Shown here piece after piece: positions 1,803-22,871 of a DNA stretch of 64,000 bases. The notes beneath the pieces are model-generated. The model saw only the letters and a program-made list of their open reading frames with translations. It did not search any database and had not been told where the DNA came from. The DNA is from Treponemataceae bacterium (GTDB lineage Bacteria > Spirochaetota > Spirochaetia > Treponematales > Rectinemataceae). Both the position numbers and the translations under genes were made by a program. Numbering within the stretch: position 1 is the stretch's first letter; each line of letters opens with the position of its first letter. The stretch is taken from contig CAXXHO010000003.1 of assembly GCA_963667725.2 (NCBI GenBank), positions 384,001 to 448,000 on the forward strand, in the 5' to 3' direction.

Positions 1803-1817
1803 GGAGGTGCGATTAAA

Positions 1818-4676: not shown

Positions 4677-4696
4677 TTAACGTTTAAAGTACGCTC

Positions 4697-4729: not shown

Positions 4730-4770
4730 AATGAAGCCTATCGCTTATAAGAGCGAAAAGGGAGATTTTT

Positions 4771-6417: not shown

Positions 6418-6426
6418 TGCGGATCG

Positions 6427-6467
6427 AAACGGGGCTGTCCTATTTGTTGGGCAACCCCGTTTTTTTT
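6427..6467 (+). terminator. Rho-independent terminator
   Basis: AAACGGGGCTGTCC...GGGCAACCCCGTTTTTTTT hairpin plus T tract just after the stop codon. Confidence 0.8.
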
Positions 6468-6737
6468 ATGTTTTCTAGCTTTATACTCTACAGGCTTAAC
6501 CTCTATTAGTTTATTTACCCGCAGCTTGCTGCGTCGGGTATAATATAAGAGTGAGTGAGTATATACATAATAGTTATAATGTGTCTGTATGAGTTAACCA
6601 TATTTTGACAGTAGGTGAATTTCGTTCACTAGATATCATATGCGCATGTAACCTTTTAATAATCTATAAGATAGAGACTCTACAATCCTGCTCTATAATT
6701 AAAGAAATTTCCCAATAATTTGTGGAATTTAGCATTT

Positions 6738-7457
6738 CTATTTAATAATGTAAAACTTAAATTTGTCACCAACCACATACTGTAAAGAACGATGTGCTGG
6801 TATTCCATCATTATCACAGGAAAGACTGTAAACATATAACAAAGGGTAACAATCAGGGAGCGAAAGGTATTTAGCCATTTCGTAGCTTGAGTAGACTAAT
6901 TCAATGACTTTTGTGCAACAGGTGAAAGAAATATTATACTTTTCTACTAGCAAGCTGATTAAAGAGACATCATTCAAATTTTCATTGAGTAAGAAAGCGT
7001 AACTCTCTGGAAAGCGTGATATTTCTATTGCGACAGGAATATTGTCGGCATAGCGGATGCGCTCAATTACTATCACTTTTGACTTTTCAGGCAATTTAAG
7101 TTCCGCAATATCCGCTTCATTAGCATCTTCGATTAGCGATTTTATAACTTTGGCACCTGGTATCTGTCCATTTTCCATGCATATCTGTGTGAAGCTAGAA
7201 CCGCGAGAAATGTCTCTTTGAAACTTCTCTCGTGCTATAAAGGTACCTATTCCGCGTTTTCTTGTGAGCAGATGTTCTTTGGCCAACTCATCAAGTGCAT
7301 TACGAACTGTTATCCGGCTTACCTCGTATATTTTACATAGTTCTTTTTCTGTAGGTATTTTTTCGCCTTTCTTATACCTTCCATTTTCAATATCGAAGCG
7401 AAGCTGATTAGCGACTTGTGCGTATAGGGGAATACTATTGTCAGCACTTCGTTCCAT
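6738..7457 (-). CDS. GntR family (HutC/UTRA subfamily) transcriptional regulator
   Basis: IPLYAQV...IPTEKEL...VSRITVRNAL...RGIGTF wHTH plus C-terminal UTRA-like domain; divergent from the catabolic operon. Confidence 0.9.
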   Translation of the reverse strand: MERSADNSIPLYAQVANQLRFDIENGRYKKGEKIPTEKELCKIYEVSRITVRNALDELAKEHLLTRKRGIGTFIAREKFQRDISRGSSFTQICMENGQIPGAKVIKSLIEDANEADIAELKLPEKSKVIVIERIRYADNIPVAIEISRFPESYAFLLNENLNDVSLISLLVEKYNISFTCCTKVIELVYSSYEMAKYLSLPDCYPLLYVYSLSCDNDGIPAHRSLQYVVGDKFKFYIIK

Positions 7458-7782
7458 TTTCCCACCCGTCCTTTATTCTGTAATACAATCTTGTAATAAC
7501 ATAGCATGTGTTGAAAATCAACGGTAGCTATTACAAAAATTTATAAAACTTGTGGCAAATTATCAATTCTATACCCATATCAGAATAGGCGATAGAACCT
7601 TTTTATACAATCCTTTAGTTTATCGTTTACTATTTAATTTCTATTATAATATATAATAAACGCTTATAAATGCTTTCTTCATCACAAAAAAAGCACCTTT
7701 AGTTGGAGCTTTCTTGAAAATTGAGCAGGCTTATACTTTTCTTGTTAACCGTCTAGCTGTGAAATATTTTTACTATTTTATC

Positions 7783-7811
7783 TTGACAGGTAAAATAAAC
7801 AGTGGTGTAAT
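7783..7811 (+). promoter_or_regulatory. Sigma70-type promoter of the island catabolic operon
   Basis: TTGACA (7783-7788), 17 nt, TGTAAT (7806-7811). Confidence 0.6.
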
Positions 7812-7994
7812 AAATAACAATATATGACAAAGATGTATTCATATTGTATTAAGGCTAGTTCGTAAAGTTATAACATTGTTTATGTTTCTTTACTAAAGGT
7901 TAGTATAGAGCTGCTACGATATTGATGGAGTAATGGATTCAATGCTGAAGCTAAAAACCGGTGGGAATAAGGCTCAGCTTTTAGGGAGTATAAT

Positions 7995-8807
7995 ATGTGG
8001 ACTGAAAGTGTATTTGGAGTAAACAAGCCTATAATCGCTTTGCTTCATCTTCGTGCAATGCCTGGGGACCCTAAGTTTGATAAAAATGGAGGCATGTCTG
8101 CGGTTGTCTCGGCTGCGAAGCGCGAACTCGATGCCCTTCAAGATAGCGGTGTAGATGGTATCCTATTCGCCAATGAATTCAGTTTACCCTATCAGCATAA
8201 AGTAGCTCATGTAACAACGGCTGCAATGGCAAGGATTATAGGTGAATTACTTAAGGATATTAAAGTGCCTTATGGCGTAAACGTTATTTTAAATCCGATG
8301 GCCGCAATAGACTTGGCTGCAGCAACAGGAGCGAGCTTTATTCGAAGCACCTTCACTGGAGCCTACATAGGGGAAAGCGGAATAACCAACACTGATGTTG
8401 CTTCCTATGTTCGAAGAAAGATGGAATTAGGTTTGGATGATCTTAAGTTGCTTTATAAAGTAAACCCTGAGTCAGATGTATATATAACCGAGCGAAATAT
8501 TACGAAAATTACAAAGTCCATAATATTCCATTGCGATCCTGATGGTCTTTGCGTCTCTGGTGATAGTGCGGGTCTGGAAACCAATTCGAAAAGCATAACA
8601 ATAGTAAAATCGGCAGCTGGAAATATTCCTGTTTTTTGTAGCACTGGATGCACTTCTCACAATATCGTTGATAAGTTGGAATGTTCTGATGGTGCATTCG
8701 TAGGTACTTCATTGAAGGAGAATGGCAAGTTTGACAATTTCGTTGATGCTCAGCGCGTTTCGGAATTCATGGGAATCGTAAAGAAATATAGAAAAGAACA
8801 TAGCTAA
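7995..8807 (+). CDS. BtpA/SgcQ family TIM-barrel protein
   Basis: IIALLHLRAMPGDP, GILFANEFSLPY, PYGVNV, DGAFVGT motifs. Confidence 0.88.
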   Translation: MWTESVFGVNKPIIALLHLRAMPGDPKFDKNGGMSAVVSAAKRELDALQDSGVDGILFANEFSLPYQHKVAHVTTAAMARIIGELLKDIKVPYGVNVILNPMAAIDLAAATGASFIRSTFTGAYIGESGITNTDVASYVRRKMELGLDDLKLLYKVNPESDVYITERNITKITKSIIFHCDPDGLCVSGDSAGLETNSKSITIVKSAAGNIPVFCSTGCTSHNIVDKLECSDGAFVGTSLKENGKFDNFVDAQRVSEFMGIVKKYRKEHS

Positions 8808-8837
8808 AATTTTTCCACTAAAAGGACTTGAACACAT

Positions 8838-10361
8838 ATGAGCGATGAAAAGCTATTCTATATGGGCATCGATATTGGCACTTTCGAAACGAAAGGTGTA
8901 ATTATCGATCAAAGTTGTTCGATCATCGTGACTCATGTGGAAAAACATGGGCTAGAAAACCATAGACCCGGCTATTATGAACATGATGCGGAGAAGGTCT
9001 GGTGGCATGACTTTTGTGCGACGAGCCGTGCGCTCTTGAAAAAAGCTGCTGTATCAAATAGTCAGATTGCCTGTATTGGAGCGAGCACCTTAGGCTGCGA
9101 CTGCCTACCTGTGGATGAAGACTGCCAACCGTTGCGTAAAGCAATTCTGTATGGGATTGATTCGAGGGCTCAGAAGGAAATCGCCTATCTCGCCGATTAC
9201 TATGGCGAAAAAGACGTAAAGCGTATTTTTGGACGTCCAATCTGCACCGGAGATGTGGCGCCGAAGATTCTGTGGCTAAAGAACAACGAGCCAGATGTCT
9301 ACAAAAATGCAAAAAAATTTCTTACGGGAGTCTCCTATATCGTCGCAAAACTCACAGGCGAGTATAAGTTGGATGGCTTTCTTGGTAGAGCCTCCTTCCG
9401 TCCATTTTACCGCGAGGATGGAAGCATTGATAAGAAAGCATGTAGTATTTTTTGCAGTCCTGATCAAATCGCAAGGACGGCTAAATCTACCGATATTGCT
9501 GGATATGTAACGGATCGGGCAGCAGACCAAACTGGATTAGCCGTAGGTACATCGGTCATCGTTGGTACTGGCGATTCTGCCGCCGAAGCGATCAGTACGG
9601 GGATACTAAACGCTGGCGATCTGATGCTCCAATTTGGCTCATCTCTATTTATCTATTGTTGCACCGATCATCTAGTCGAGGATGATAGAATACGGGGCAA
9701 TAATTATACAATTCCCGGGATGTTTAGCGTCGCTGCTGGTACCAATACATGCGGAACCTTAACGAGATGGTACCGCGACACAATTTTCCCCGATTTTTTG
9801 GCGAATGAATTGGCTGGAGGCGAGAATGCCTTTGGTACAATGCTCTCTGGTTTAGAAAAAATCCCCGCCGGATCTGACGGACTCGTCACATTGCCTTATT
9901 TCGCAGGTGAAAGGACTCCCATCAATGATCCGAACGCTAAAGGCATGATATTTGGATTAAATCTCAAGCATACGCGCTCTCATCTATATAAATCCGCTTT
10001 AGAATCAGTTGGATATTCTGTAAGTCAGCATATCGAGATTTTGCATGAGCTCGGGATAAAAATTGGCAAGGTAATGGCTGTCGGGGGCGGCACAAAAAGC
10101 CGTGTTTGGATGCAAATCATTGCCGATGTCATCGGTATGGATATCGGAATCGCTAAAGTGACTCTAGGCGCCGCATATGGGGACGCTCTTATGGCAGCTT
10201 TGGGAACCGGAAGGTTTAATAATTTTTCAGAATTGGAGAAAGTAATTAAGCTCGAAACTGTTATTACTCCCAACTTACGAAACCATGAAAAATACAAGGA
10301 ATTTAGGAGAATTTTCGATGTGCTTTATTTAAACAACAAAGAATTGATGCATCGCATTTAA
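8838..10361 (+). CDS. FGGY family carbohydrate kinase (xylulokinase-like)
   Basis: GIDIGTFETK, ILYGIDSRA, PKILWLK, LPYFAGERTP, VGGGTKS. Confidence 0.9.
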   Translation: MSDEKLFYMGIDIGTFETKGVIIDQSCSIIVTHVEKHGLENHRPGYYEHDAEKVWWHDFCATSRALLKKAAVSNSQIACIGASTLGCDCLPVDEDCQPLRKAILYGIDSRAQKEIAYLADYYGEKDVKRIFGRPICTGDVAPKILWLKNNEPDVYKNAKKFLTGVSYIVAKLTGEYKLDGFLGRASFRPFYREDGSIDKKACSIFCSPDQIARTAKSTDIAGYVTDRAADQTGLAVGTSVIVGTGDSAAEAISTGILNAGDLMLQFGSSLFIYCCTDHLVEDDRIRGNNYTIPGMFSVAAGTNTCGTLTRWYRDTIFPDFLANELAGGENAFGTMLSGLEKIPAGSDGLVTLPYFAGERTPINDPNAKGMIFGLNLKHTRSHLYKSALESVGYSVSQHIEILHELGIKIGKVMAVGGGTKSRVWMQIIADVIGMDIGIAKVTLGAAYGDALMAALGTGRFNNFSELEKVIKLETVITPNLRNHEKYKEFRRIFDVLYLNNKELMHRI

Positions 10362-10396
10362 GCAGGGACATTTCAGCTTTAAAGCGGAGGTGATGT

Positions 10397-11242
10397 ATGC
10401 TGAATTTATCTAGGAATCAACTTTCCGGAATGAATTGTCATTATATTCGGCATTCCTTCAAGTTTTTCTTGGATTCCATGCAGAAGATCGGTCTACAAAA
10501 TATTGAGTTATGGGGCGCATCTCCACATTATTTCGCAGAATACTTCGACAATAGCATGGTTTTGAATATGAAGCGTCAAATATCTGATAGAAAGCTGAAG
10601 CTCGTCTGCCTGACTCCCGAACAAGTTACTTATCCCATCAATATTGCAGCACGTGAAGAATATTTACGTAAACTGAGCGTACAAAATCACCTAAAAACGC
10701 TTGAACATGCCGCGATATTGGAAAGCCCGTTGATGCTGCTGACGCCTGGGTATGGAAACCTTGACGAGGATAGGAACGAAGCTTGGAAGCGTTCCGCCGA
10801 CTCCATTTCGAAGATCGCCAAAAGAGCGGAAGAGTTGGGCATAGTAGTCGCTCTTGAGCACCTTTCCCCCATCAGCTCAAACTTGATAAATACTGCTTCT
10901 CAATTGAAGGAAATGCTGGATGAAATCAATTCTAAAAGTTTAAAAGCAACGATGGATGTGGTTCAAGTTGGAATTGTAAACGAGACCGTGGATAAATATT
11001 TCATGTTGCTTGGTAATGACATTGTTCATATTCATTTCATTGATGGAACTCCGGGGGGGCACCTAGCATTAGGTGAAGGAGAATTACCGCTAGAAGATGA
11101 TCTTATCAGTATTTCGAAGAATGGGTACAAAGGTTTTCTTTCAATGGAAATTGCTGATAGAAGGTATTTCGCACATCCTGAAGAAGCAGACCTTTTATCC
11201 AAAATAAAATTCAAGTACTGGATTGACAATTTAACTGATTAA
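10397..11242 (+). CDS. Xylose-isomerase-like TIM barrel, FrlC (fructoselysine 3-epimerase)-like, paralog 1
   Basis: IELWGASPH, TPEQVTYPINI, LEHLSPISSN, MDVVQ, HIHFIDG, HLALGEG, MEI match the FrlC motif order. Confidence 0.75.
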   Translation: MLNLSRNQLSGMNCHYIRHSFKFFLDSMQKIGLQNIELWGASPHYFAEYFDNSMVLNMKRQISDRKLKLVCLTPEQVTYPINIAAREEYLRKLSVQNHLKTLEHAAILESPLMLLTPGYGNLDEDRNEAWKRSADSISKIAKRAEELGIVVALEHLSPISSNLINTASQLKEMLDEINSKSLKATMDVVQVGIVNETVDKYFMLLGNDIVHIHFIDGTPGGHLALGEGELPLEDDLISISKNGYKGFLSMEIADRRYFAHPEEADLLSKIKFKYWIDNLTD

Positions 11243-11325
11243 TAAAACTGCCATGATTTAGCAGGATTTTTAGTGAATGTTTTATAAAGCATTATAGCCG
11301 AATGAGGCGATAGAGGTGGAATATT

Positions 11326-13392
11326 ATGGGTTATATGATTGGAGTTGATGTTGGGGGTACATTCACTGATTTTTCAGTGTTCGACACGAAAACAAAGAGA
11401 CTATTTCATTATAAGCAGAGTACTACGTCGGAAGACCCTTCTAAAGCGATCGTGAGTGGTATCGAACACATCCTAGAGCAGGAAAGAATTAACCCAGACG
11501 AAGTGATATATCTTGCTCACGGTACTACCGTGGCGACTAACGCGCTCATCGAAAAAAAAGGCGCCAAAATTGGTCTCATAACAACAAAAGGTTTCAAGGA
11601 TTTAATGGAAATAGGTTGGCAAAAACGTCCGTCTTTGTATGACCTTCTCAAGAAGAAACCTGAAAGCTTAATACAAGCTGGTCTAAAATGCGAAGTGAAT
11701 GAGAGGATCATGTTTGACGGAACAGTAAGGACTCCTCTTGATGAAAACGATGTTCGTAAAGTCGTGAAATATCTTAAGTCACAGAATGTTCAGGCTATTG
11801 CTATATGTACTTTATTCTCTTTTATCAATCCGTTACATGAAAAGAGAATAAAGGATATCGTTGAAGAAGAATTCCCTGAGGTTTATGTATCTGCATCACA
11901 TGAACTAGTTCCCGAATTTCGCGAATATTCACGCATGAGCACTACGGTCCTGAATGCATATCTCGGGCCGGTCATGAAAAAGTACGTGCACAATTTCGAG
12001 AAATCGATTTTCGCTTCCGGAATTAGAGTTGCTCCTTACGTTACACAGTCAAACGGGTCAGTAATCTCAATTTCTGAAACCATAGGTTGTCCGATAAGGA
12101 CCGCGGTGTCTGGTCCAAGCGCCGGTGTAATTGGTGCGATCACTGTTGGTCAGCATTGTGGGATTAATAAGATTATCTCTTTTGACATGGGAGGAACAAG
12201 CACTGATGTAAGCTTGATAGAGAATGGCGTGGCACAGCTTTCAAACGAACGTCTCGTTGAAGGATATCCGGCTCGTATTCCTATGATCGATATAGTGACG
12301 GTCGGTGCTGGTGGTGGATCAATCGCCCGAATTGACGAAGGCGGCGCACTAAAAGTTGGACCGGACAGCGCTGGTGCAACACCTGGACCTGCCTGTTATA
12401 TGCGCGGAGGAGAAAAGCCGACTGTGACTGACGCCAATATTATCTTGGGGAAACTAAATCAACACAAGATATTGGGTGGCAGGATGAACGTTGACCTAAA
12501 TCTTGCTAAAGATGCGATGAAAAGAAATATCTGCGATAAATCGATGCTTGATCTGAAAAAGGCAGCCGCGGGCATAATATCGGTAGTTAACTCAAATATG
12601 ATGCGAGCTATACGTCTTGTCTCTGTAGAGCGTGGATACGATGCGCGTGAGTTCAATTTAATGGCATTCGGCGGTGCTGGCCCGCTACATGCATGTGAAG
12701 TGGCTCAAAATATGGGTATAAGCACAGTACTGATACCTCCTTCGCCCGGAACTTTATGTTCGCTTGGTTTACTTATGGCTGACACAAAATTCGATATAAG
12801 CCGCTCGAATATAATGATCGCGCAGGAAGAGAGTCTTCCTAGAGTCCAGAAAATATTCAAAGAGCTAATATTAGAAGGGAAAAAAGACCTCGACAAGGAA
12901 AAGGTCGCTGAAAAAGATCGTACGTATAAGTGTGCTATTGAATGTCGATATGAACGACAAAATTATGAGATCTCTATAGAAGTAGACCCTTCAATGACAA
13001 TGGAAATAATGGATCGAATGATGGCTAAATTTCATGAGGAGCATAACCGTTCTTATGGTTACTATAATAGAAAAATGCGAATACAGATGGTTAATTACCA
13101 TGTTACAGCCATCGGATCGATAATCAAGCCTAATTTTGATGGATGCTCTGTAGGTAAAGTCGTAACTCTTCCTAAACCCTTAGAGGAACGCGATGTACTG
13201 TTTGAAGGTAATGATGATTTTATTCTGACAAAAGTATATCAGAGGACAGACATCAAACCGGGATGCACCATCAGTGGACCAGCTATCATTGAACAGATGG
13301 ATTCGACATCGATCATCCCACCTGGCTGGGATGCATATACCGATGGGTTTAACAATATTATTGCATCCTACAGCGGGAGTGTAAAAGCATGA
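11326..13392 (+). CDS. Hydantoinase A / 5-oxoprolinase ATP-binding subunit
   Basis: GVDVGGTFTD, HGTTVATNALIE, SGPSAG, DMGGTSTD, GAGGGSIA, FGGAGPLH. Confidence 0.92.
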   Translation: MGYMIGVDVGGTFTDFSVFDTKTKRLFHYKQSTTSEDPSKAIVSGIEHILEQERINPDEVIYLAHGTTVATNALIEKKGAKIGLITTKGFKDLMEIGWQKRPSLYDLLKKKPESLIQAGLKCEVNERIMFDGTVRTPLDENDVRKVVKYLKSQNVQAIAICTLFSFINPLHEKRIKDIVEEEFPEVYVSASHELVPEFREYSRMSTTVLNAYLGPVMKKYVHNFEKSIFASGIRVAPYVTQSNGSVISISETIGCPIRTAVSGPSAGVIGAITVGQHCGINKIISFDMGGTSTDVSLIENGVAQLSNERLVEGYPARIPMIDIVTVGAGGGSIARIDEGGALKVGPDSAGATPGPACYMRGGEKPTVTDANIILGKLNQHKILGGRMNVDLNLAKDAMKRNICDKSMLDLKKAAAGIISVVNSNMMRAIRLVSVERGYDAREFNLMAFGGAGPLHACEVAQNMGISTVLIPPSPGTLCSLGLLMADTKFDISRSNIMIAQEESLPRVQKIFKELILEGKKDLDKEKVAEKDRTYKCAIECRYERQNYEISIEVDPSMTMEIMDRMMAKFHEEHNRSYGYYNRKMRIQMVNYHVTAIGSIIKPNFDGCSVGKVVTLPKPLEERDVLFEGNDDFILTKVYQRTDIKPGCTISGPAIIEQMDSTSIIPPGWDAYTDGFNNIIASYSGSVKA

Positions 13393-15134
13393 AAAGGAGC
13401 ATTGATCCGGTCACGGTCGAAATCGTAGGCAATCTTATCTTATCAATCGCAGAAGAGATGGGTGTAGCGATTATTAAGAGCGCATATTCTACGAATATCA
13501 AAGAACGAAGAGATATATCAACAGCAGTATTCGATCCCGAGGGTAATATGGTAGCACAGGCGGAACATGTCCCTATGCATTTGGGTTCGCTACTCGGAAT
13601 TATCAAGGAAATCTACAAGAAACATCCGCTTGAGGAAATCAAGCCAGGTGACATGTTCATGGGTAACGATCCCTACAATGGGGGAGGGACACACCTGCCC
13701 GACATTACAGTGGCCGTTCCTGTTTTTGTGAGCGAGATGCTTGTTGGATGGGCCGCGAATTGTGCGCATCACAGCGATGTCGGTGGGAAAGTTCCTGGTT
13801 CTGTTGCAGGTGACGCTAATAGTATTTTTCAGGAAGGAATAAAGATTCCTCTTGTAAGGGTATGCCAGAACAATAAAGTGAATGAAGACATCATCGGTTT
13901 TGTAATGACTAACAGTCGCATTCCCGGCGAACGTTACGGTGATCTTCAGGCGCAAATCGCGGCTAACCATGTTGGCATGCGACGCATGACAGAAGCCTAT
14001 GAGCGTTATGGTGATCTCATGATCGACTGTATGCACGAACTCCAAGACTACGCTGAACGCAGGCTCCGTGCTGGTATCGCGAAAATCCCGACAGGCACTT
14101 ATGAGTTTACAGATTATATGGATGATGGTGGATCAGCTTGCCCTAATCCGCTACAGATAAGCGTAAAGATCAATATTCATGGCGATATGATGGATCTCGA
14201 TTTTGCTGGAACCCATGAGCAGGTGGAAGGGCCAATTAACATGACTTTCAACGGTCTGCTCGCAACGGTATTCTATTCCCTTAAAACATTAATTGATCCC
14301 GGTATCCCATCAAATGCAGGAATTTATAGAGCATTCCATGTCATCGCGGAACCAGGTCTAATCGTCAATGCGGTGAACCCCGCGCCCGTTGGCGAGAGGA
14401 TCGATACAGCGATGCGCGTTGCCGACGTTATTTTTGGTGCGCTAGCTTCGGCCATTCCTGAGCGAGCCATTGCGGGATGTAACAGTTCTTGCACTTCCGC
14501 GCTATTTAGCGGCAACGATCCGATAGACAAGGAACATTATTATGTTTACTTGGAAACAATAGCTGGCGGCTCCGGGGCGACAAAGCATTCAGATGGATTG
14601 AGTGGTGTTCAAGTCCATATGACAAATACTTCGAATCTACCCATAGAAGCGCTAGAAATGGAATTTCCTTTAATACTTGTAAAGAAATATTCTCTGAGAC
14701 CTGACAGCGGTGGAGCTGGAAAATATCGCGGTGGGTTAGGAATTGAACGCGAATTCGAGGCTATGTTCGACAATATCACCTATACAGGTCTTGGCGACAG
14801 ACAAATATTTGCGCCTTGGGGCCTGGAAGGTGGCCTCGATGGATATGGTGGTGCTTATTATCTTACGCGCAAGGACGGGGAGCCTCAGCGCCTGCCGTCT
14901 AAAAGCACCAACATCCTGCTGAATAAAGGCGATACAGTAAACGTTCTGACTCCCGGAGCAGGTGGGTACGGAAAAGCGCGCGAACGCGATGAATTAGCAG
15001 TCTTGTGCGATGTCATTGAAGGGAAAGTGTCGGTAGAAAAAGCGGGAGAATTCTACGGTGTCGCCATAATAGATGTGGGTGGAAGCTACTCTATCAACAA
15101 AGAAGAAACAGAGAGAATGAGAAAAGCGATGTAG
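13389..15134 (+). CDS. Hydantoinase B / oxoprolinase subunit
   Basis: SAYSTNIKERRD, NDPYNGGGTHLPD, HHSDVGG, SGGAGKYRGG, TPGAGGYG; ATGA overlap with subunit A. Confidence 0.92.
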   Translation: MKRSIDPVTVEIVGNLILSIAEEMGVAIIKSAYSTNIKERRDISTAVFDPEGNMVAQAEHVPMHLGSLLGIIKEIYKKHPLEEIKPGDMFMGNDPYNGGGTHLPDITVAVPVFVSEMLVGWAANCAHHSDVGGKVPGSVAGDANSIFQEGIKIPLVRVCQNNKVNEDIIGFVMTNSRIPGERYGDLQAQIAANHVGMRRMTEAYERYGDLMIDCMHELQDYAERRLRAGIAKIPTGTYEFTDYMDDGGSACPNPLQISVKINIHGDMMDLDFAGTHEQVEGPINMTFNGLLATVFYSLKTLIDPGIPSNAGIYRAFHVIAEPGLIVNAVNPAPVGERIDTAMRVADVIFGALASAIPERAIAGCNSSCTSALFSGNDPIDKEHYYVYLETIAGGSGATKHSDGLSGVQVHMTNTSNLPIEALEMEFPLILVKKYSLRPDSGGAGKYRGGLGIEREFEAMFDNITYTGLGDRQIFAPWGLEGGLDGYGGAYYLTRKDGEPQRLPSKSTNILLNKGDTVNVLTPGAGGYGKARERDELAVLCDVIEGKVSVEKAGEFYGVAIIDVGGSYSINKEETERMRKAM

Positions 15135-15191
15135 TAATTGGTAATTTAGGCCCTCATATTTTAAAACTTATAAATCAGGAGGTGACGAGCT

Positions 15192-15737
15192 ATGCAGAGC
15201 GGTAAAATTCATACGATTCATTCTGCTTTGGGGAAAGCCAATTCTTTTATACACAGTATCGCAGCTTGCTTAACAGGACTGTTTCTTGCGATTTTATTTA
15301 TCCAAGTATTTATGCGATATGTTTTCAAGAGCCCAATATATGGCCTCGATGAGCTTGTCATCGCACTGATGGTCTGGTCCATGTCGCTGGGGTTCGCCGT
15401 AGTATATTGGGAAAACGAACATGCAACTATAGAATTATTATTAAAATATTTTCCAAAATCTGGCAAAAAAGCTGTCTACTATCTCACGAATATTATTGTC
15501 TTAATGTGCTCAGTTTCTCTTGTGCCTGGAGGTATCAAATTATTTATTCTCCAATCGAGAACAATTTCGCTTGGAGGTTTATTTTTCTCGCGAGCATATT
15601 ACTATGCGTTACCAATCATCGTTCTGGGATTTTTGCTCTCCATTATGAGCGCTTTTCGAACCTTAGAGTATGCAATCACTGGTGATGATTCGATAATGAC
15701 CTCGAAACCTGCTGAAGGAGGAGTAAATGTTGATTGA
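15192..15737 (+). CDS. TRAP transporter small permease (DctQ)
   Basis: Four TM segments, QVFMRYVF...DEL...H motif. Confidence 0.85.
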   Translation: MQSGKIHTIHSALGKANSFIHSIAACLTGLFLAILFIQVFMRYVFKSPIYGLDELVIALMVWSMSLGFAVVYWENEHATIELLLKYFPKSGKKAVYYLTNIIVLMCSVSLVPGGIKLFILQSRTISLGGLFFSRAYYYALPIIVLGFLLSIMSAFRTLEYAITGDDSIMTSKPAEGGVNVD

Positions 15738-17019
15738 TCCTATTGTTCTGGTCTGCTTCGGCTTGTTCATCGTGTTGCTCATGATCGAGGTTCCAATTCC
15801 TTTTGGTATGCTCTTCTCTAGTATTCTTTATGCGTTGGTTAAAGGTCAGAGTTTTATGATGTTCGCACAAAAGATAGCCAGCTCGTTTGCTGACTTCTCC
15901 ATGCTTGCAGTTCCAGCGTTCCTATTTGTCGGAATTTTCATGAACGAGATAGGGCTTACGGAGATTATCTTCCGTTTTTGTGAAAAATGGTTAGGGCACA
16001 TTACGGGTGGTTTGGCTCATGCAAACATCCTTGGTAGCATGATCTTTGCGGGAATGTCGGGATCTGCTCTTGCTGATGCTGGTGGTATGGGCGTCATCGA
16101 AGTTAACGCCATGCGCGAAGCTGGCTATGATGAAAATTTTTCCGTGGCTTGTTCCGCTGCCTCCTCGACGATAGGACCAATCATTCCGCCGAGCATAAAC
16201 TTTGTAATATGGGCTTTTCTCTCGCAAACTTCAACACTGGCAATGTTCCTGGGTGGTCTTGTACCGGGAATACTAATGGGCTTAGCGATGATGGTATGGG
16301 TCGCTATCGCAATACCTAAATACCATATAAAAGTGCCAACTCTTAAAAAAGCGACTTGGAAAGAAAGATGGGTAGCCACTATAAAGGCTCTTCCTGCTAT
16401 TGGAGGACCAGCGATTCTTATTGGTGGTATGATGTCGGGAGCTTTTACACCCACTGAATGTGGAGTTGTTGGTGCCGCTTATTGCTTTATCTTAGCGATT
16501 GTCTATAAAAAAATGAATTTTAAGATGCTCAGCAGGGTATTGAGAAGCACATTGTCTTCTTCAGCTATGGTGATGGCGCTCTGTGCAACCGGCTTGGTTT
16601 TCAACTGGATGATAGTGACAAGCGGACTCCTCAGTACTTTGGCTCAGGGACTGCTTGCTTTGGGTAATCCTTATCTCGTCTTGTTTCTTATAAACGTGCT
16701 CTTCGTCTTTCTAGGGTGCTTTATCGGATCGATGCAAATTTTAATAATGATGGCTCCTCTTTTAATATCCCTCTCTGACGGATTCGGCTTCAGTCTTGTG
16801 CACATTGGCGTCATGGCTGTTTTTAATTTAGTCATTGGACTCATTACACCACCAATGGCACCTGCCCTTTTCGTCACATGTAAGGCAACCAACGTTTCTT
16901 TTAACAAGTCGTTGAAATACACAGTGCAATTCTTGGTTCCCCTTGTGTTAATGCTGCTCGTCATCACGTATGTCCCTGAAGTTGTGCTTTGGCTTCCAAG
17001 GATTATGGGAGCTTTATGA
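15727..17019 (+). CDS. TRAP transporter large permease (DctM)
   Basis: FAGMSGSALADA, GPIIPPS, TPTE, GLITPP motifs. Confidence 0.9.
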   Translation: MLIDPIVLVCFGLFIVLLMIEVPIPFGMLFSSILYALVKGQSFMMFAQKIASSFADFSMLAVPAFLFVGIFMNEIGLTEIIFRFCEKWLGHITGGLAHANILGSMIFAGMSGSALADAGGMGVIEVNAMREAGYDENFSVACSAASSTIGPIIPPSINFVIWAFLSQTSTLAMFLGGLVPGILMGLAMMVWVAIAIPKYHIKVPTLKKATWKERWVATIKALPAIGGPAILIGGMMSGAFTPTECGVVGAAYCFILAIVYKKMNFKMLSRVLRSTLSSSAMVMALCATGLVFNWMIVTSGLLSTLAQGLLALGNPYLVLFLINVLFVFLGCFIGSMQILIMMAPLLISLSDGFGFSLVHIGVMAVFNLVIGLITPPMAPALFVTCKATNVSFNKSLKYTVQFLVPLVLMLLVITYVPEVVLWLPRIMGAL

Positions 17020-17050
17020 TCAATGTTTTGAGAGAATAGGAGGCAATGGT

Positions 17051-18040
17051 ATGAAAAGGTCACTATCGGTCGTTCTTGCTATGTTCTTGTGCTTCGCCAC
17101 AGTATCCATAGGAGCACAAAATAAAGGTGTCATGGTTTTTAAAATAGGTGCCGCGTCTACGCCTAAAGAAGCCATGGCAATAGCTGGACAAAAGTTCTGC
17201 GACCTCGTCAACGAGCGTCTCGCCGGGAAAGTAAAGTTCGAGTATTATCCAGGGGAGCAACTCGGAAACGAGACGACCATGTTCGAGAACATGCAGGTGG
17301 ATCTTCAGCAGGGATTGACGAACGCTTTCGATTCTTACGGCAATTTTTCAAGAGATCTGAATATCATGAGCATGGCATTCGCGTTTGAAAGCCATGAGCA
17401 TCTATTCAGGTATCTTAAATCCGATCTTGGAAAGAAAGCCCTGGAAAAGCTCGAGAAACAGGGTATCCACGTTTTGAATTATAATTTCAGGAAGAATGCG
17501 CGCTGCGTTTTTGGGAAAAAACCGATCACCAAGCCAGAAGATCTCAAGGGTGTTAAATTCAGAATCGCGAATATTCCCATATGGGAAAAAAATTTCAGGA
17601 CGCTCGGTGCTGTTCCCACAGTTGTCGCCTGGTCTGAATATCCGTACGCACTCATCCAAGGCGTTGTTGATGCTGGTGAATGCACGCGTGAGAACATCTA
17701 CCCCATGGGATTCTACAAGTCATGTCCTTACATTACGCTGGTCGACTACGCGTATCCGCTAGAATGTATTAGCCTTTCGACTGCCGCATGGAATCGGCTG
17801 AATTCCGAGCAGCAGAAAGTAGTCCAGCAGTGCGCGGACGAAGCATCGGATTATTATAACAGCGTGATAAACACTAAATGGGAAGAGGATAAATCGAAGA
17901 TCATAAAAGAAGGCGGCCATTTCGTCGATTTCGACAAAAACCTATTCATAAAGAAGATGGCTCCATTGGCGGCTGAATTGGAAAAGAGCAAATTCTGGGA
18001 CACGCCTGGATTGTATGATTCTGTACAGGCACTTCGTTGA
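17051..18040 (+). CDS. TRAP substrate-binding protein (DctP family), copy 1
   Basis: AGGAGG RBS, ATG17051 with signal peptide; YPGEQLG, DLKGVKFR, ALIQGVVDA. Confidence 0.88.
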   Translation: MKRSLSVVLAMFLCFATVSIGAQNKGVMVFKIGAASTPKEAMAIAGQKFCDLVNERLAGKVKFEYYPGEQLGNETTMFENMQVDLQQGLTNAFDSYGNFSRDLNIMSMAFAFESHEHLFRYLKSDLGKKALEKLEKQGIHVLNYNFRKNARCVFGKKPITKPEDLKGVKFRIANIPIWEKNFRTLGAVPTVVAWSEYPYALIQGVVDAGECTRENIYPMGFYKSCPYITLVDYAYPLECISLSTAAWNRLNSEQQKVVQQCADEASDYYNSVINTKWEEDKSKIIKEGGHFVDFDKNLFIKKMAPLAAELEKSKFWDTPGLYDSVQALR

Positions 18041-18049
18041 TATAAACGT

Positions 18050-18076
18050 TCTGGCCGCTTATGAAAAGCGGCCAGA
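18050..18076 (+). other. Stem-loop after dctP copy 1
   Basis: TCTGGCCGCTT-ATGAA-AAGCGGCCAGA, perfect 11-bp stem. Confidence 0.6.
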
Positions 18077-18112
18077 GATTAGTGTTTTATAATAAATTTA
18101 GGGAGATGGAAA

Positions 18113-19102
18113 ATGAAAAAACCACTGTTACCAGTTTATATCATTTTTTTATGTTTTACTGTTTTAACCATGACTGCTCAAACAAAAAATATCATGGTCT
18201 TAAAAATCGGTTCCGCTTCGACCACCAAGGAACCTCTGGCCATATCGACGCAAAAGTTTTGCGACCTTGCCAACGAACGTCTCGCGGGACAAATAAAGTT
18301 TGAATATTATCCTGGCGAACAGCTCGGCAATGAAACGACCATGTTTGAAAATCTTCAGGTAGATCTTCAGCAAGGTATCGCGAACGCGCTCGATTCCTAC
18401 GGAAACTTTTCAAAGGATCTGAACATCATGGGAATGGCCTTTGCTTTCGAGAACCAGGATCATCTTTTCAAGTATCTCAAATCGGATCTTGGCAAGAAGG
18501 CGCTGGATAAGCTCGAAAAGCAAGGATTCCATATCCTGACTTACAACTGCAAGAGAAATCCACGTTGCATTTTCTCGAAAAAGCCCATATCAAAACCAGA
18601 AGACCTCAAGGGCGTGAAATTCAGAGTTCCGAATATTCCGATATGGGAGAAAAATTTTAGAACCCTCGGGGCGATTCCGGTTTTTGTCGCATGGTCGGAA
18701 GCTCCCTATGCGCTTATCCAAGGTGTCGTGGATGCCGGCGAATCCACACGCGAGCTTTTATACCCTATGGGATTTTATAAATCATGTCCCTATATTACCC
18801 TAGTTGATTACGCATATCCCCTCGACTGCATAACTCTATCGACGTCGGCATGGAATCGCCTAGCTCCTGAACAGCAGAAAATCATACAACAATGTGCCGA
18901 CGAGGCATCAGAAGTCTACAACTCTATTGTGAAGACGAAATGGGAAGAAGACAAGACGAAAATCGTGAAGGAAGGCGGGCGTTTCGTCGATTTTGACAAG
19001 AATCTCTTCATCAAGAAAATGGCGCCATTGGCCGCCGAATTGGAAAAAGTAAAGTTTTGGGATACTCAGGGATTGTATGAAATGGTGCAAGCGTTGCGCT
19101 GA
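18113..19102 (+). CDS. TRAP substrate-binding protein (DctP family), copy 2
   Basis: Close paralog of 17051..18040; DLKGVKFRVPN; signal peptide. Confidence 0.88.
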   Translation: MKKPLLPVYIIFLCFTVLTMTAQTKNIMVLKIGSASTTKEPLAISTQKFCDLANERLAGQIKFEYYPGEQLGNETTMFENLQVDLQQGIANALDSYGNFSKDLNIMGMAFAFENQDHLFKYLKSDLGKKALDKLEKQGFHILTYNCKRNPRCIFSKKPISKPEDLKGVKFRVPNIPIWEKNFRTLGAIPVFVAWSEAPYALIQGVVDAGESTRELLYPMGFYKSCPYITLVDYAYPLDCITLSTSAWNRLAPEQQKIIQQCADEASEVYNSIVKTKWEEDKTKIVKEGGRFVDFDKNLFIKKMAPLAAELEKVKFWDTQGLYEMVQALR

Positions 19103-19143
19103 TCTCTTCATGTAATGTGTTGGTGAAAAGCATGGAATTCTGG

Positions 19144-19170
19144 TGGGAACGGCAGATTATGCCGTTCCCA
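19144..19170 (+). other. Stem-loop after dctP copy 2
   Basis: TGGGAACGGCA-GATTA-TGCCGTTCCCA, perfect 11-bp stem. Confidence 0.6.
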
Positions 19171-19201
19171 TTGCCCGTGATAAATGCCCATGGAGTAAAA
19201 G

Positions 19202-20035
19202 TTGAAAAATTTAACTGAATCGCAATTCGCCGGCTCTAATTTTCATTACATAAAACACACATTCGATTATTTTCTGAAATCCATGGATACGCTGGATGTC
19301 CATATCGTTGAGTTTTATATGGCATGTCCCCATTTTAGCGTGTTCGATGCGACCATAGAAGATGTGAAACGGATAAAGAAAGCTTTCGATAGTCGCGATA
19401 TTAAGCTTTGTTGTACGACTCTGGAGCAATGCACATATCCGATAAACATCGCCACTGAGGATGATGCTATACGCGAGAGAAGTATCGCCGAGCTAGAGAA
19501 AACCATCGAATTTACTGCAATATTAGGTTGTCCTTATACCCAGGTTTTGGGCGGAAGAGGTAGCTACGATCTTCCGGAAGAAGATGCGTGGAAGCGTTCT
19601 GTTGAATCGTTCATGAGATTAGCGGAAAAAGGGCGACAGTGTGGTGTTACAATGGTAATAGAAGAAGCCTCATGGTTCACCACTAATACTGTATACACGA
19701 CTCCATTAACTAGAAATATTTTGGATGAAGTGAATAGCCCCTTCTTCAAGGCAATGCTCGATAACTGTGCGACAGAAACAGCAAGAGAAGATTTTATAGA
19801 ATGTCTGAAAATATTGAAAGACGATATGCGCCATATTCATTTTGCAGACGGAAACCCAAGCGGGCATTTCATCCCAGGCGAAGGAAATCTTCCTTTGAGC
19901 AAATATTTGGGGGCATTGGATGAATGCGGCTATACAGGTGCGCTAACCTTCGAACTATATAATCGCAAATATGAACTTGATCCTCATCTTTATATGACGA
20001 AGTGTTTTGATTATATCAGAGATATATTTAGATAA
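19202..20035 (+). CDS. FrlC-like TIM-barrel isomerase/epimerase, paralog 2
   Basis: VEFYMACPH, EQCTYPINI, IEE, MLDN, HIHFADG, HFIPGEG, FEL. Confidence 0.75.
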   Translation: MKNLTESQFAGSNFHYIKHTFDYFLKSMDTLDVHIVEFYMACPHFSVFDATIEDVKRIKKAFDSRDIKLCCTTLEQCTYPINIATEDDAIRERSIAELEKTIEFTAILGCPYTQVLGGRGSYDLPEEDAWKRSVESFMRLAEKGRQCGVTMVIEEASWFTTNTVYTTPLTRNILDEVNSPFFKAMLDNCATETAREDFIECLKILKDDMRHIHFADGNPSGHFIPGEGNLPLSKYLGALDECGYTGALTFELYNRKYELDPHLYMTKCFDYIRDIFR

Positions 20036-20058
20036 TATCTTCGAGGAAGGTAATTGCA

Positions 20059-20892
20059 ATGCAAAAAATCAATATCAACCAGATTTCTGCTATGAATATT
20101 TCCTATCAATTTTTTTCGTTTGAGTACTTTCTTGATTCCATGGTGACAATTGGGTGTAAAAATATTGATATATGGACAGGTTATCCACATTTTCTCGTGG
20201 ATGACGATTATGAGACAAAAGCACGTAAAATACGAGATCAGTGCGATTCGGTGGGGATCAATGTAAGAAACATCACTCCGAAGGTAATCGGATGGCCGCT
20301 GAATATCGCGGACAAGAGCGAAAAGATTCGAGGGAATGCTATAAGATATATTAAACGATGTATCGACGCAGCAGAAATACTCGGCGCACCTTCTCTCCAG
20401 CTCGTTCCAGGAACCGGCCTCTACGATGAGCCAGTGGAAGATGCCTGGAAACTATCCAGGGAATCGCTAAGCATCTTATCGGAGTACGCACTGAATAGAA
20501 AAAAACAATTAGCGCTAGAAGCAATACAAATACTTGAATCAAATTTAGTGGGAAATAAATCTCAGCTAAAAAAAATGGTAGAGGAAGTTAATTCTCCCGC
20601 GCTTGGAGCCGTTGTGGATACCACACATATGGAAAAAAATGGAGAAACCCTCGACGAATATTTCGATATTCTTGGCGAAAAAATAAAGCGTGTTCACCTA
20701 AACGAAAGCAATCAACTTCCATGGGGTGAAGGCAATAACCCACTTAATGTTTATATTAGCCAGCTCAATCGGCATCAATATAATGGACCCATCACGATAG
20801 AAATCTGTTCTAAGGTCCATTATCTTAACCCTCACAATGCAATGAAAAAAACCTTTGATTACGTTATTGATGCATTAGCGAGGCAGATTTAG
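20059..20892 (+). CDS. FrlC-like TIM-barrel isomerase/epimerase, paralog 3
   Basis: IDIWTGYPH, TPKVIGWPLNI, LEAIQILESN, VDTTH, VHLNE, WGEG, IEI. Confidence 0.72.
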   Translation: MQKININQISAMNISYQFFSFEYFLDSMVTIGCKNIDIWTGYPHFLVDDDYETKARKIRDQCDSVGINVRNITPKVIGWPLNIADKSEKIRGNAIRYIKRCIDAAEILGAPSLQLVPGTGLYDEPVEDAWKLSRESLSILSEYALNRKKQLALEAIQILESNLVGNKSQLKKMVEEVNSPALGAVVDTTHMEKNGETLDEYFDILGEKIKRVHLNESNQLPWGEGNNPLNVYISQLNRHQYNGPITIEICSKVHYLNPHNAMKKTFDYVIDALARQI

Positions 20893-20948: not shown

Positions 20949-22871
20949 CTGACGTTGTACAGCGTGTGGTATAATACAGTAAGCAATAAAGCAGCTTAAT
21001 ATATTATACTGACAACAAATAACTAAAAACGGACTGTACAAAAAGCATGATGCAAATGCGGTATAAGATATTTATAAATATTCGAAATAAAACTTTACAG
21101 ATAAAACACTATGTTGTATAATTAGCGGTATAATGAACGTACGGAAATGTACCCTAAAGAATGCTCAAGGCGGTACCTATACGTACCTTCAACTTGTGCA
21201 CAACTACCGCGTCAAGGAAACAGGAAAGACCAAAACCAATGTCCTTATGAAGCTCGGACGGGAAGATCAGATCGAGCCTTCCTACATCCAGGCGATCATC
21301 AAGGCACTGTCTGCGGTCTTAGGCGAATATCCTTCTGAAGTCCCCGCCGGATTTGACTTCCATTCAAGTCGGGAGCTTGGGGGCACCTGGCTTCTAGATG
21401 CCCTATGGAATCGTCTTGGCATGGCAAAGGCTATCAAAGGGCTTCTTAACGAACGCCAGTTCGCCACACCCGTCGAACGGCTCTGCTTTGCCATGGTTGC
21501 AGGCAGGATCCTGGCTCCGGGTTCGAAGCTTTCTCTTGAACACTGGGTTTCAAAGAAAGCATATATCAGGGATCTTGTGAACGTCGATGTTCACAATCTT
21601 TACCGGGCGATGGATCTTCTTGTGGAGTCGAGCGAAGAACTCCAGAAGCACATATTTACCGAAGTATCAAAGAATGCCCACCTTGATGTGGATCTTATCT
21701 TTCTTGATACGACGAACACCTATTTCGAGACCGACGAAGATGCTTCCGGTTCAGGGCTTTTAAAACGTGGCCACAGTAAAGATGGACACCCCGAGCTACC
21801 GTTGGTTTCGATTGCCTTTGCGGTGACGCGTAGCGGCATTCCTATTCGCTGCTGGGTATTCCCGGGCAACACGAGCGACCAGACGATCGTCGAGCAGGTG
21901 AAAGGTGATCTAGGACAGTGGAATCTTGGTCATGTCGTCATGGTCCAAGATGCAGGATTCAATAGTGCCGACAACAGAAGAATCCTTTTACGGGAATGCG
22001 GTGACTATATCATCGGCGAAAAGCTCCGCGTTGGTACCGATGGCGCCGCGGTAGAAGCCCTACACCGGAAAGGGCGATTCAGGATCCTGGAAAGTGGCCT
22101 CGCGATTAAAGATGTCGTCCTCGATGCAGGGAAAGCCACGGAGCGCCGATTCATCATCGTCAAGAATCCGGAAGCCGAAACGCGCGACCATGTCATACGC
22201 GAACAAATCGTCGATGCTACGAAGCGCAAGCTTGATGAACTGTCGCAGTATACGGGGAAAGCACACACGAAAGCGGCGTGTGCGCTACGCTCTCATTCCG
22301 CCTATGGCAGATACATTAGGCAGGATACGAAGGGTGTCTTGCACCTCGACACCGCCAAGATAGCCTCAGAGGAACTCCTTGATGGCAAGTTTCTAGTGTC
22401 GACGTCCAGCATGAAGCTGGATGCTGCCGATATTGTTGCCGGCTATAAGCAGCTCTGGGCCATAGAGCGGGTATTCAAGGATATGAAAAACACCTTGGAT
22501 ATTCGTCCCATATACCACCGACTTGATGATCGTATTCGAAGCCATATTCTTATTTGCTGGCTTGCCATGGTGCTGGTACGGTATGCAGAGAATATGGCGG
22601 ACCGGTCGTGGTACCAGATTGAAAAAGTTCTGTCCGATGTTACTGCAGGGCTTATTGAGAGCGACAATGTAAGCCTCTGGTATTGCTCTGATATTTCCGA
22701 CGAGGCGAAGGACATTTTCAAGCGCTTAACTATTGAATTACCAAAGAAAGTTCTTGCTACAGTAGCAAGAGATCCTGTTGCGGTATAAAAGATTTTCGAC
22801 TGCAATCGTATAACTCTATTATTTATAGAGTATTAGCAAGATTTTCTATACCGCGCACTGTACAACGCCAG
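20949..22871 (+). mobile_element. Complete IS1634-family insertion sequence (1923 bp)
   Basis: 25-bp imperfect terminal IRs (20949-20973 CTGACGTTGTACAGCGTGTGGTATA; 22847-22871, 4 mismatches) flanked by the direct repeat TTGAT (20944-20948 and 22872-22876). Confidence 0.9.
21133..22788 (+). CDS. IS1634 family DDE transposase
   Basis: FLDTTNTYFE, RGHSKD, FPGNTSD, VQDAG, YKQLWAIERVFKDMK, RPIYHRLDDRIRSH; intact 551 aa; TTTACA-17-TATAAT promoter at 21094-21122. Confidence 0.9.
   Translation: MNVRKCTLKNAQGGTYTYLQLVHNYRVKETGKTKTNVLMKLGREDQIEPSYIQAIIKALSAVLGEYPSEVPAGFDFHSSRELGGTWLLDALWNRLGMAKAIKGLLNERQFATPVERLCFAMVAGRILAPGSKLSLEHWVSKKAYIRDLVNVDVHNLYRAMDLLVESSEELQKHIFTEVSKNAHLDVDLIFLDTTNTYFETDEDASGSGLLKRGHSKDGHPELPLVSIAFAVTRSGIPIRCWVFPGNTSDQTIVEQVKGDLGQWNLGHVVMVQDAGFNSADNRRILLRECGDYIIGEKLRVGTDGAAVEALHRKGRFRILESGLAIKDVVLDAGKATERRFIIVKNPEAETRDHVIREQIVDATKRKLDELSQYTGKAHTKAACALRSHSAYGRYIRQDTKGVLHLDTAKIASEELLDGKFLVSTSSMKLDAADIVAGYKQLWAIERVFKDMKNTLDIRPIYHRLDDRIRSHILICWLAMVLVRYAENMADRSWYQIEKVLSDVTAGLIESDNVSLWYCSDISDEAKDIFKRLTIELPKKVLATVARDPVAV

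Follow-up and report, generated by a model that had tools for sequence, protein, structure and literature searches.

A candidate operon for the catabolism of an Amadori-type sugar-oxoproline lactam in a Treponemataceae bacterium

Introduction

Which substrate is consumed by an operon that joins a two-subunit hydantoinase/oxoprolinase to relatives of the fructoselysine epimerase FrlC, an FGGY-family sugar kinase, a protein of the orphan BtpA/SgcQ family and a tripartite ATP-independent periplasmic (TRAP) transporter? We examined an operon of this composition in a 64,000-nt stretch of the genome of a Treponemataceae bacterium (GCA_963667725.2, contig CAXXHO010000003.1, positions 384,001 to 448,000 of the forward strand). 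The whole stretch is called the window below, and all coordinates are counted from its first letter; the operon and its regulator occupy positions 6738-20892. We estimate a probability of about 50% that these genes serve the uptake and catabolism of an N-(1-deoxyketosyl)-5-oxoproline. Such a molecule is the lactam of a sugar-glutamate or sugar-glutamine Amadori compound and is related both to deoxyfructosyl-oxoproline and to agropinic acid, an opine. That the substrate is an Amadori-type sugar-amino-acid conjugate of some kind appears probable.

Amadori compounds and their lactams arise wherever sugars meet amino acids, for example in rotting plants, in food that has been heated and in crown-gall tumours. 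The few bacterial routes for such compounds that we know of are FrlD/FrlB, FraD/FraB, Gfr, the oxidative amadoriases and the opine systems. A full-text search of mostly open-access literature found no link between a hydantoinase, oxoprolinase or caprolactamase and the catabolism of fructosamines or Amadori compounds or a deglycase, and no paper giving BtpA/SgcQ an enzymatic function.

Results

Gene content of the operon

Eleven plus-strand genes follow one another in a single row, with gaps of -11 to 99 nt, in the list of open reading frames (ORFs) and the Pfam and NCBIfam scans of the window. A regulator gene on the minus strand diverges from them. The content and order of these genes and their family membership, as well as the conservation of the cluster and the neighborhoods of its relatives described further below, are direct observations. 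An earlier note on this DNA had named the same gene set with its divergent UTRA-type GntR regulator, and all of it was recovered, at the same coordinates, in the ORF list and the family scans.

The row opens with a TIM barrel of the BtpA/SgcQ family (7995-8807), a membership clear over residues 10-266 (TIGR00259, 240 bits against a cut-off of 153.4; PF03437, 233 against 30). It is followed by the sugar kinase (8838-10361), which has FGGY_N and FGGY_C domains and is a predicted ketosamine kinase, and by an AP_endonuc_2 barrel, barrel 1 (10397-11242), a predicted ketosamine 3-epimerase. Two more barrels of this kind close the row (barrel 2, 19202-20035; barrel 3, 20059-20892). Each of the three barrels matches the family of the fructoselysine 3-epimerase FrlC (NF007360) best, at 132, 109 and 104 bits, respectively; any other family scores at most 68 bits, and for barrel 1 the next family after FrlC reaches 46 bits. 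Identity among the three barrels is only 32-37% (37% between barrels 2 and 1, 32-33% between barrel 3 and the others).

Barrel 1 is followed by the hydantoinase/oxoprolinase subunits A (HyuA, 11326-13392) and B (HyuB, 13389-15134), the start of HyuB overlapping the HyuA stop by 4 nt. HyuA carries Hydantoinase_A, Hydant_A_N and Hydant_A_C domains and HyuB a Hydantoinase_B domain (616 bits). The family scores of the pair (331, 189, 44 and 616 bits) are all over the cut-off and place it among the two-subunit hydantoinases/oxoprolinases; HyuA is predicted to be the alpha subunit of an ATP-dependent lactamase.

A complete TRAP system follows, each component scoring above its cut-off: the small membrane subunit DctQ (15192-15737; PF04290, 74 bits), the large membrane subunit DctM (15727-17019; PF06808, 312 bits; TIGR00786, 327 bits, cut-off 268) and two binding proteins, DctP1 (17051-18040; PF03480, 197 bits; NF037995, 162 bits, cut-off 50) and DctP2 (18113-19102; 200 and 161 bits). 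DctP1 was listed as an ORF from 16970; its true start is most likely 17051, since the ATG there opens the signal-peptide-like sequence MKRSLSVVLAMF. The F-R and K-F-R motifs are kept in both binding proteins, and we take their arginines to be the carboxylate-binding arginines of the DctP family.

The regulator (6738-7457) has a GntR domain (77 bits) and a UTRA effector domain (91 bits). Its best NCBIfam match, NF008491, reaches 146 bits under a cut-off of 269, and the GntR/UTRA (FrlR/FraR-type) assignment holds at the family level only. The Pfam scan gave no PfkB and no SIS domain within 6738-20892 and no redox or oxidoreductase domain among the operon proteins. The earlier note had stated that no SIS-domain FrlB, PfkB-type FrlD or FAD amadoriase is encoded. 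This is correct for the operon; the genome itself has a frlB-O-N-M-D-R-like operon about 250 kb away.

Relatives of HyuAB adjoin Amadori and opine genes

Among proteins of known structure in the PDB, HyuA was closest to N-methylhydantoinase (502 bits) and to 6yra (428 bits), and carboxylases scored at most 282 bits. A carboxylase function of HyuAB was considered and ruled out, the hydrolase scores being about twice the carboxylase scores. The closest database HyuB proteins are 76-82% identical to that of the window.

We then compared the surroundings of HyuB in 14 loci (L002-L009, L025, L036, L037, L039, L040 and L083) in which it shares 55-77% identity with the HyuB of the window; a scan of genome contigs with the window HyuB gave 10 loci. 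A SIS-domain gene is present in 10 of the 14 and a PfkB kinase in nine. In the two loci in which these matches were scanned (L007 and L002), the best NCBIfam match of the SIS protein is FrlB (95-102 bits) and that of the kinase FrlD (168-172 bits). A GntR/UTRA-like gene accompanies HyuB in 10/14 loci and a TRAP system in 4/14. Eight loci encode a binding protein of the SBP_bac_5 family together with an ABC system of the Opp/Dpp type, the ABC genes having been scanned in L007 and L002 only. The simplest reading of these sister operons is that they would take up deoxyfructosyl-oxoproline, open its ring with HyuAB and convert the product with FrlD and FrlB to glucose 6-phosphate and glutamate. 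In a quick tree of 19 HyuB rows, used only qualitatively, a clade with an SH-aLRT value of 84 and with open forks inside it unites the window with the Frl-type loci.

One of the TRAP-containing loci, L036, is a hybrid. Its GntR gene is divergent from DctQ-DctM-DctP (49%, 69% and 65% identical to the window's), a FrlD-like kinase, a barrel (41% identical to barrel 1), HyuA-HyuB (77% and 76%) and a FrlB-like gene. Judged by its gene content, L036 links window-type TRAP and HyuAB genes to canonical Amadori enzymes. The gene neighborhood of another locus, L040 (L040:966-12919, G094:C10), is of a different kind: HyuAB (55-63%) and DctQMP adjoin an ornithine-cyclodeaminase-like gene, an FGGY kinase and a class-V aminotransferase, there are no Frl-type genes, and its HyuAB may act on a different lactam.

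A second line of comparison leads to Agrobacterium. Agropinic acid is an N-(mannityl)-5-oxoproline, and the Ti-plasmid pair AgaF/AgaG is reported to open its lactam (Lyi, Jafri and Winans, 1999). The earlier note had drawn an analogy to this system, and the analogy proved to reflect real homology. The window HyuA is 45.4% identical over 99% of its length to its homolog on pTi_Tun198, and HyuB 47% over 474 residues. On that plasmid the hydantoinase pair, a short-chain dehydrogenase/reductase (SDR) and an FAD oxidoreductase adjoin a binding protein to which the SBP_bac_5 protein of the sister operons is 46% identical. The best PDB match of this SBP_bac_5 protein is AgaA (6hlx), at 480 bits against 183 for the next match; AgaA is the agropinic-acid receptor according to the title of Marty et al. 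(2019). Passages of a paper on santhopine (PMC8262997) name soc genes only. Like the aga region, then, the window has a hydantoinase pair, 45-47% identical, beside an importer for what would be a sugar-derived N-substituted 5-oxoproline, and the clostridial sister operons even have an AgaA-type binding protein. Unlike the aga region, the window imports by TRAP, the AgaA-type SBP_bac_5 ABC importer occurring only in the sister operons. It also lacks the SDR/FAD oxidoreductase for a reduced (mannityl) side chain and has a kinase, BtpA and epimerases in its place. This implies that the side chain is a keto-sugar, as in Amadori compounds, and not a sugar alcohol. HyuAB relatives in operons with FrlD-like, FrlB-like and AgaA-like genes thus lend comparative, indirect support to the earlier proposal of a sugar-amino-acid lactam conjugate as substrate, and we rate it as slightly more likely than not that HyuAB opens such a lactam.

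Recurrence of the cluster in other genomes

The earlier note had named a lack of co-occurrence in other genomes as a finding that would refute its proposal; the genes do co-occur. The genome of Clostridium transplantifaecale (G042) carries the set at one locus (L025), where a GntR gene (61%) faces BtpA (67%), FGGY (63%), a barrel (55%), DctQ (51%), DctM (62%), DctP (62%), HyuA (70%) and HyuB (74%), that is, with identities of 51-74% throughout. A metagenome-assembled genome of the Peptococcaceae (G041) has BtpA-FGGY-barrel on a short contig (73-75%; barrel 74%) and HyuB-DctQ-DctM on a second contig (67-78%), in the same order as the window. Since the same set recurs in other genomes, the gene arrangement is no chance juxtaposition.

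Behind the C. transplantifaecale cluster there is neither a second DctP nor any further barrel. DctP1 and DctP2 are 77% identical, and DctP1 is nearer than DctP2 to the orthologs in this genome and in that of L036, G352 (62-65% for DctP1). A 12-bp GC-rich hairpin (18049-18077, plus strand), possibly an attenuator or a stabiliser of the mRNA, lies between the two binding-protein genes of the window. Because of the missing genes in G042 and the closer relation of DctP1 to the orthologs, the regulator and eight genes, BtpA through DctP1 and including barrel 1, form the core. The genes on the far side of the hairpin, for DctP2 and barrels 2 and 3, seem to be an add-on, which would widen the range of isomers imported. 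By its similarity to DctP1, DctP2 appears to be a diverged tandem duplicate.

The BtpA-FGGY module

We next asked in what company BtpA is found. In a family sample around G042 comprising 401 genomes, 19 had a BtpA match at E<=1e-70, and 14 BtpA loci besides the window were examined (L020, L024-L026 and L068-L077). In 10/14 of them, the immediate neighbor of BtpA is an FGGY kinase with 44-73% identity to that of the window, and an AP_endonuc_2 barrel lies within 5 kb in 7/14. HyuAB accompanies BtpA only in L025, to which the second contig of G041 can be added. Between the database hits of HyuB and those of BtpA there are eight agreements in the length of the longest contig (9654, 14773, 26085, 18917, 2015153, 345239, 19711 and 37253), which hint that the two genes are co-located in these relatives. 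In three of the 14 loci, BtpA-FGGY occurs in one stretch with FrlB-like SIS, PfkB and GntR/UTRA genes and with carboxylate carriers: in G722 (L069/L079), in G596 (L076, with a DcuA/B carrier) and in G636 (L077, with a DcuC carrier and amidohydrolases). A carrier of the DcuA/B type is also present in the Salmonella fra locus. The HyuAB neighbors and the BtpA-FGGY neighbors are thus both of the Frl type, and both halves of the operon lead independently to Amadori-type loci. The earlier note had called for a new cleavage enzyme, a demand that the recurrent BtpA-FGGY pair, elsewhere beside FrlB/FrlD genes, could satisfy. The addition of BtpA-FGGY to FrlB/FrlD genes in three loci suggests that the pair serves another ketosamine, for example an isomer or one derived from a pentose, and does not simply take the place of FrlB/FrlD.

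Two of these loci are described here for their composition. In the fra-like locus L076:485-12449 (G596:C1), a GntR gene is divergent from a deglycase-like SIS gene, the DcuA/B carrier, two AP_endonuc_2 barrels, BtpA, FGGY, Amidohydro_2, UPF0047, two PfkB kinases and a HAD phosphatase. L026:8896-18618 (G042:C5) holds a BtpA operon of another type, with DeoR, BtpA (49%), a small PHI-like SIS gene, a NagB/6-phosphogluconolactonase-like gene, a distant FGGY kinase and a ribose-type ABC importer. C. transplantifaecale, a cultured carrier, holds both operon types.

What might BtpA do? A PDB sequence search found no solved structure of the family, its only match being a designed protein (E 0.0016). 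A Pfam scan of all 38 members of the BtpA alignment brought up no noteworthy second family at E<=10, and an Atlas search with BtpA returned BtpA clusters only. An AF2 model from the 38-row alignment (pLDDT 94.1, pTM 0.92) is a (beta/alpha)8 barrel with glycine-rich loops after strands 6-8 (S188-G189, T217-G218 and G237-T238); going by the alignment, such loops are typical of phosphate-binding barrels. Residues H18, N60, E61, R117, R140, R167 and K241 are invariant in BtpA. By Foldseek and VIA-align, the fold neighbors are the HPS-PHI protein 9lj9 (Z 19.2, rmsd 2.7, 202 residues aligned), the KDPGal aldolase 2v82 (18.0), PRAI 1v5x (17.0) and HisA 4gj1 (16.7), with TenI, CutC, GGGPS, ThiE, HisF and PriA as further neighbors. 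The modelled fold would point to a phosphorylated sugar as substrate and to nothing more specific. Amadori rearrangements, with N-(5-phosphoribosyl)amines as substrates, are the reactions of PRAI, HisA and PriA, and this makes the reverse, deglycase reaction chemically plausible for BtpA. We consider it possible, though doubtful, that BtpA is the cleaving enzyme. A fuller version of this idea, which we rate as rather unlikely, is that BtpA/SgcQ is a new deglycase: a TrpF/HisA-like barrel that would reverse the Amadori rearrangement on a ketosamine phosphorylated by the FGGY kinase and so free the amino acid and an aldose phosphate. Its substrate may then be a 5-phospho-ribulosamine or 5-phospho-xylulosamine from pentose-amino-acid conjugates, interconverted by the FrlC-like 3-epimerases.

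Proposed pathway

From these observations we infer every biochemical step of the following pathway. The TRAP system would import the carboxylate-bearing conjugate, DctP1 and DctP2 serving as receptors for two related ligands. HyuA and HyuB would then open the pyroglutamate ring at the expense of ATP, yielding an N-ketosyl-glutamate, whose ketose part would be 3-epimerised by the FrlC-like barrels and phosphorylated at its terminal hydroxyl by the FGGY kinase. From the phosphorylated ketosamine, BtpA would produce glutamate and an aldose phosphate, the likeliest chemistry being an Amadori isomerisation run in reverse and then a hydrolysis. The operon would be kept repressed by the GntR/UTRA protein for as long as no intermediate is bound to it. 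The FGGY kinase and BtpA are probably used where the known pathways have the FrlD kinase and the FrlB deglycase. Since the operon has no redox enzyme, chemistry of the amadoriase type and of the mannityl-opine type is excluded, and an isomerase-type deglycation is the only route evident in the operon by which the amino acid could be released.

A low-GC island in the host genome

The earlier note had placed the operon in AT-rich island DNA, and indeed the GC content is 0.37-0.49 over 6001-28000 against 0.53-0.60 on both flanks. The operon is adjoined by a gene for an IS1634-family transposase (21133-22788, plus strand; NF033559, 348 bits, cut-off 100), which belongs to the island and stands outside the pathway. 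Ten copies of this transposase, with 96-100% protein identity, are present in the genome, eight on C5 and two on C3; the element is actively expanded in the host. HyuB is a single-copy gene in the host genome and was found in 0/2 genomes of the same genus (each 92% complete; E<=1e-30 with the window HyuB as query). At the same threshold it had matches in 2/24 genomes of the same family, only one of them close (G019, 74%). The BtpA of the same genus is only 31-33% identical to that of the window. We infer, with good support, that the island was acquired by horizontal transfer.

Two metagenome contigs match the flank plus the island (window 1-18804) at 99.7% identity, and a BtpA scan of metagenomes gave two loci only, both 100% identical to the window gene. 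The DNA runs X5 and X6, which are habitat-labelled and contain at least half of the sampled words, are labelled as groundwater metagenomes; all sampled words were also found in runs X1-X4, which bear only a coded organism label.

The frl-type operon of the host lies about 250 kb from the window operon, at G000:C3:641160-647040 (L078:7160-13040). It encodes a FrlB-like SIS protein (L078:7160-8134), an SBP_bac_1 binding protein, two permeases, a FrlD-like PfkB kinase and a GntR/UTRA regulator, in the order frlB-SBP-permease-permease-frlD-GntR.

Alternative explanations

Several findings weigh against catabolism of a ketosyl-oxoproline by this operon. Three of them concern family scores: the 104-132 bits of the barrels are all below the 305-bit cut-off of the FrlC equivalog; the best NCBIfam match of the FGGY kinase is XylB (TIGR01312), at 296.7 bits under a cut-off of 380.25, with 3ifr and E. 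coli XylB (2itm) as best PDB matches; and HyuAB miss the caprolactamase equivalogs NF050156/NF050157, with 611 and 312 bits against a 1000-bit cut-off. The window has a TRAP system and not an AgaA-type importer, so that the link to an agropinic-like ligand goes via homologs and not via its own binding proteins. Loci L004-L007 are near-identical kin, and the counts among 14 HyuB loci overstate independence. The remaining points are the host frl-type operon, which could provide kinase and deglycase in trans; the three loci in which BtpA-FGGY adds to FrlB/FrlD and does not replace them, so that a deglycase function of BtpA is not their sole reading; the usual occurrence of BtpA-FGGY-barrel modules without HyuAB, and of HyuAB-TRAP without BtpA in L040, by which the operon could join two separate functions; and the BtpA fold scores, which are effectively tied, single out no nearest family and fit an aldolase or lyase equally well. 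Four alternatives were considered.

In the first, HyuAB opens the lactam, the FrlD and FrlB of the host phosphorylate and deglycate the resulting fructosyl-glutamate, and BtpA, the FGGY kinase and the three barrels serve solely in the salvage of some unusual sugar or ketosamine isomer. The presence of the frl-type operon in the genome and the coexistence of BtpA-FGGY with FrlB/FrlD-like genes in L069/L079, L076 and L077 speak for this division of labor. The island, however, is foreign to the genus, as seen above for HyuB and BtpA, and the same self-contained set travels together in G042 and G041; moreover, the FrlB and FrlD of the host are only 37-38% identical to those linked to HyuAB elsewhere. 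We regard cleavage in trans as improbable.

In the second, one transcription unit would hold two unrelated functions: TRAP and HyuAB for a cyclic amide in free form, be it 5-oxoproline, a hydantoin or some other lactam, and BtpA, FGGY and the barrels for a free rare sugar such as a pentulose or psicose. In 9/10 of one set of BtpA loci, BtpA-FGGY indeed occurs without HyuAB, L072 has BtpA without either, and HyuAB-DctQMP stands beside the ornithine-cyclodeaminase-like gene in L040. A xylulokinase is the best match of the FGGY kinase, and the barrels weakly match psicose 3-epimerase; their match to FrlC, however, is about twice that to any free-sugar epimerase. Each module alone is tied to FrlB/FrlD-type genes elsewhere, and the whole set stands under one GntR/UTRA regulator in two genomes. 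The odds of two separate functions seem to us as low as those of cleavage in trans.

The third alternative concerns BtpA, which might be an aldolase or lyase, similar to 3-hexulose-6-phosphate synthase or KDPG aldolase, that cleaves a C-C bond of a phosphorylated sugar, with the amino acid freed by a metal-dependent AP_endonuc_2 barrel or spontaneously. Its top fold neighbors are HPS-PHI and the KDPGal aldolase, and the small PHI-like SIS gene follows BtpA in L026. The Z scores are nonetheless tied within 1-2 units, with PRAI and HisA in the same range, and C-C cleavage would leave an N-substituted fragment for which the operon has no evident enzyme. This role is distinctly improbable. A modified nucleoside or other N-ribosyl compound, which the earlier note had offered as an alternative substrate, was rejected for the window as highly improbable: nothing was found there in its favor, the Pfam and NCBIfam scans gave no nucleosidase, phosphorylase, deaminase or nucleoside transporter in the operon, and all the contextual links that we found lead to Amadori or opine genes.

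Regulatory region and surroundings of the operon

The AT-rich intergenic region between the regulator and BtpA (7458-7994) contains short palindromes, seen in this single genome, and presumably holds the divergent promoters and an operator. Overall, promoter-like sites were not above shuffled sequence (32 vs 38.1), and neither were terminator-like sites (11 vs 11.9).

Just left of the island boundary are two tandem C69-family dipeptidase genes (3048-6417), 52% identical to each other. The remainder of the island has three ORFs with no Pfam match (23825-24190, 24681-25463 and 25733-26266), a tRNA-Thr(CGT) gene (25576-25648, minus strand) and a gene for a PEGA-domain protein (26491-27558, minus strand). 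Just past the island, at 28943-32354, come genes for a class-III aminotransferase (28943-30244), a BKACE protein (30245-31066) and a lysine 2,3-aminomutase-like radical SAM protein (31071-32354). From these lysine-fermentation-type genes, the host is probably an amino-acid-fermenting anaerobe.

Discussion

The operon is best filed as a variant of Amadori/opine catabolism with two uncharacterised components, this clade of HyuAB and the BtpA-FGGY pair. It shares with the fructosamine pathways (E. coli frlABCDR, B. subtilis frlBONMD-frlR and Salmonella fra) a GntR/UTRA regulator, one or more FrlC-like epimerases and a predicted order in which a kinase acts before cleavage to a sugar phosphate and an amino acid, and relatives of its HyuAB are found beside FrlD-like and FrlB-like genes. 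It differs from them in having an FGGY kinase and BtpA instead of a PfkB kinase and a SIS deglycase, and in adding a predicted ATP-dependent lactamase and a TRAP importer; the host, moreover, keeps a separate canonical frl operon. HyuAB have the same two-subunit architecture and Pfam domains as CapAB, N-methylhydantoinase and 5-oxoprolinase, whereas their context points to an N-glycated lactam and not to caprolactam, a creatinine-derived hydantoin or free oxoproline. The orphan E. coli sgcXBCQAER cluster likewise has, besides its BtpA/SgcQ protein, a sugar-phosphate epimerase and an uptake step that phosphorylates. There, phosphorylation is by a phosphotransferase system (PTS) and not by an FGGY kinase, and the hydantoinase pair, the TRAP system and the FrlC-like barrels are absent.

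These comparisons point to a widespread clostridial clade of ATP-dependent lactamases for glycated pyroglutamate, which would tie the opine catabolism of Agrobacterium to ordinary anaerobes, and to TRAP transport of sugar-amino-acid conjugates. They also point to a conserved BtpA-FGGY-epimerase module in the place otherwise taken by the canonical kinase and deglycase, and they supply an assayable hypothesis for the orphan BtpA/SgcQ family. Should BtpA prove to be a deglycase, this would be the first enzymatic function for the family, including E. coli SgcQ. It would also establish a second route for Maillard/Amadori products, independent of FrlB/FrlD, which the lactamase would extend to their pyroglutamate forms.

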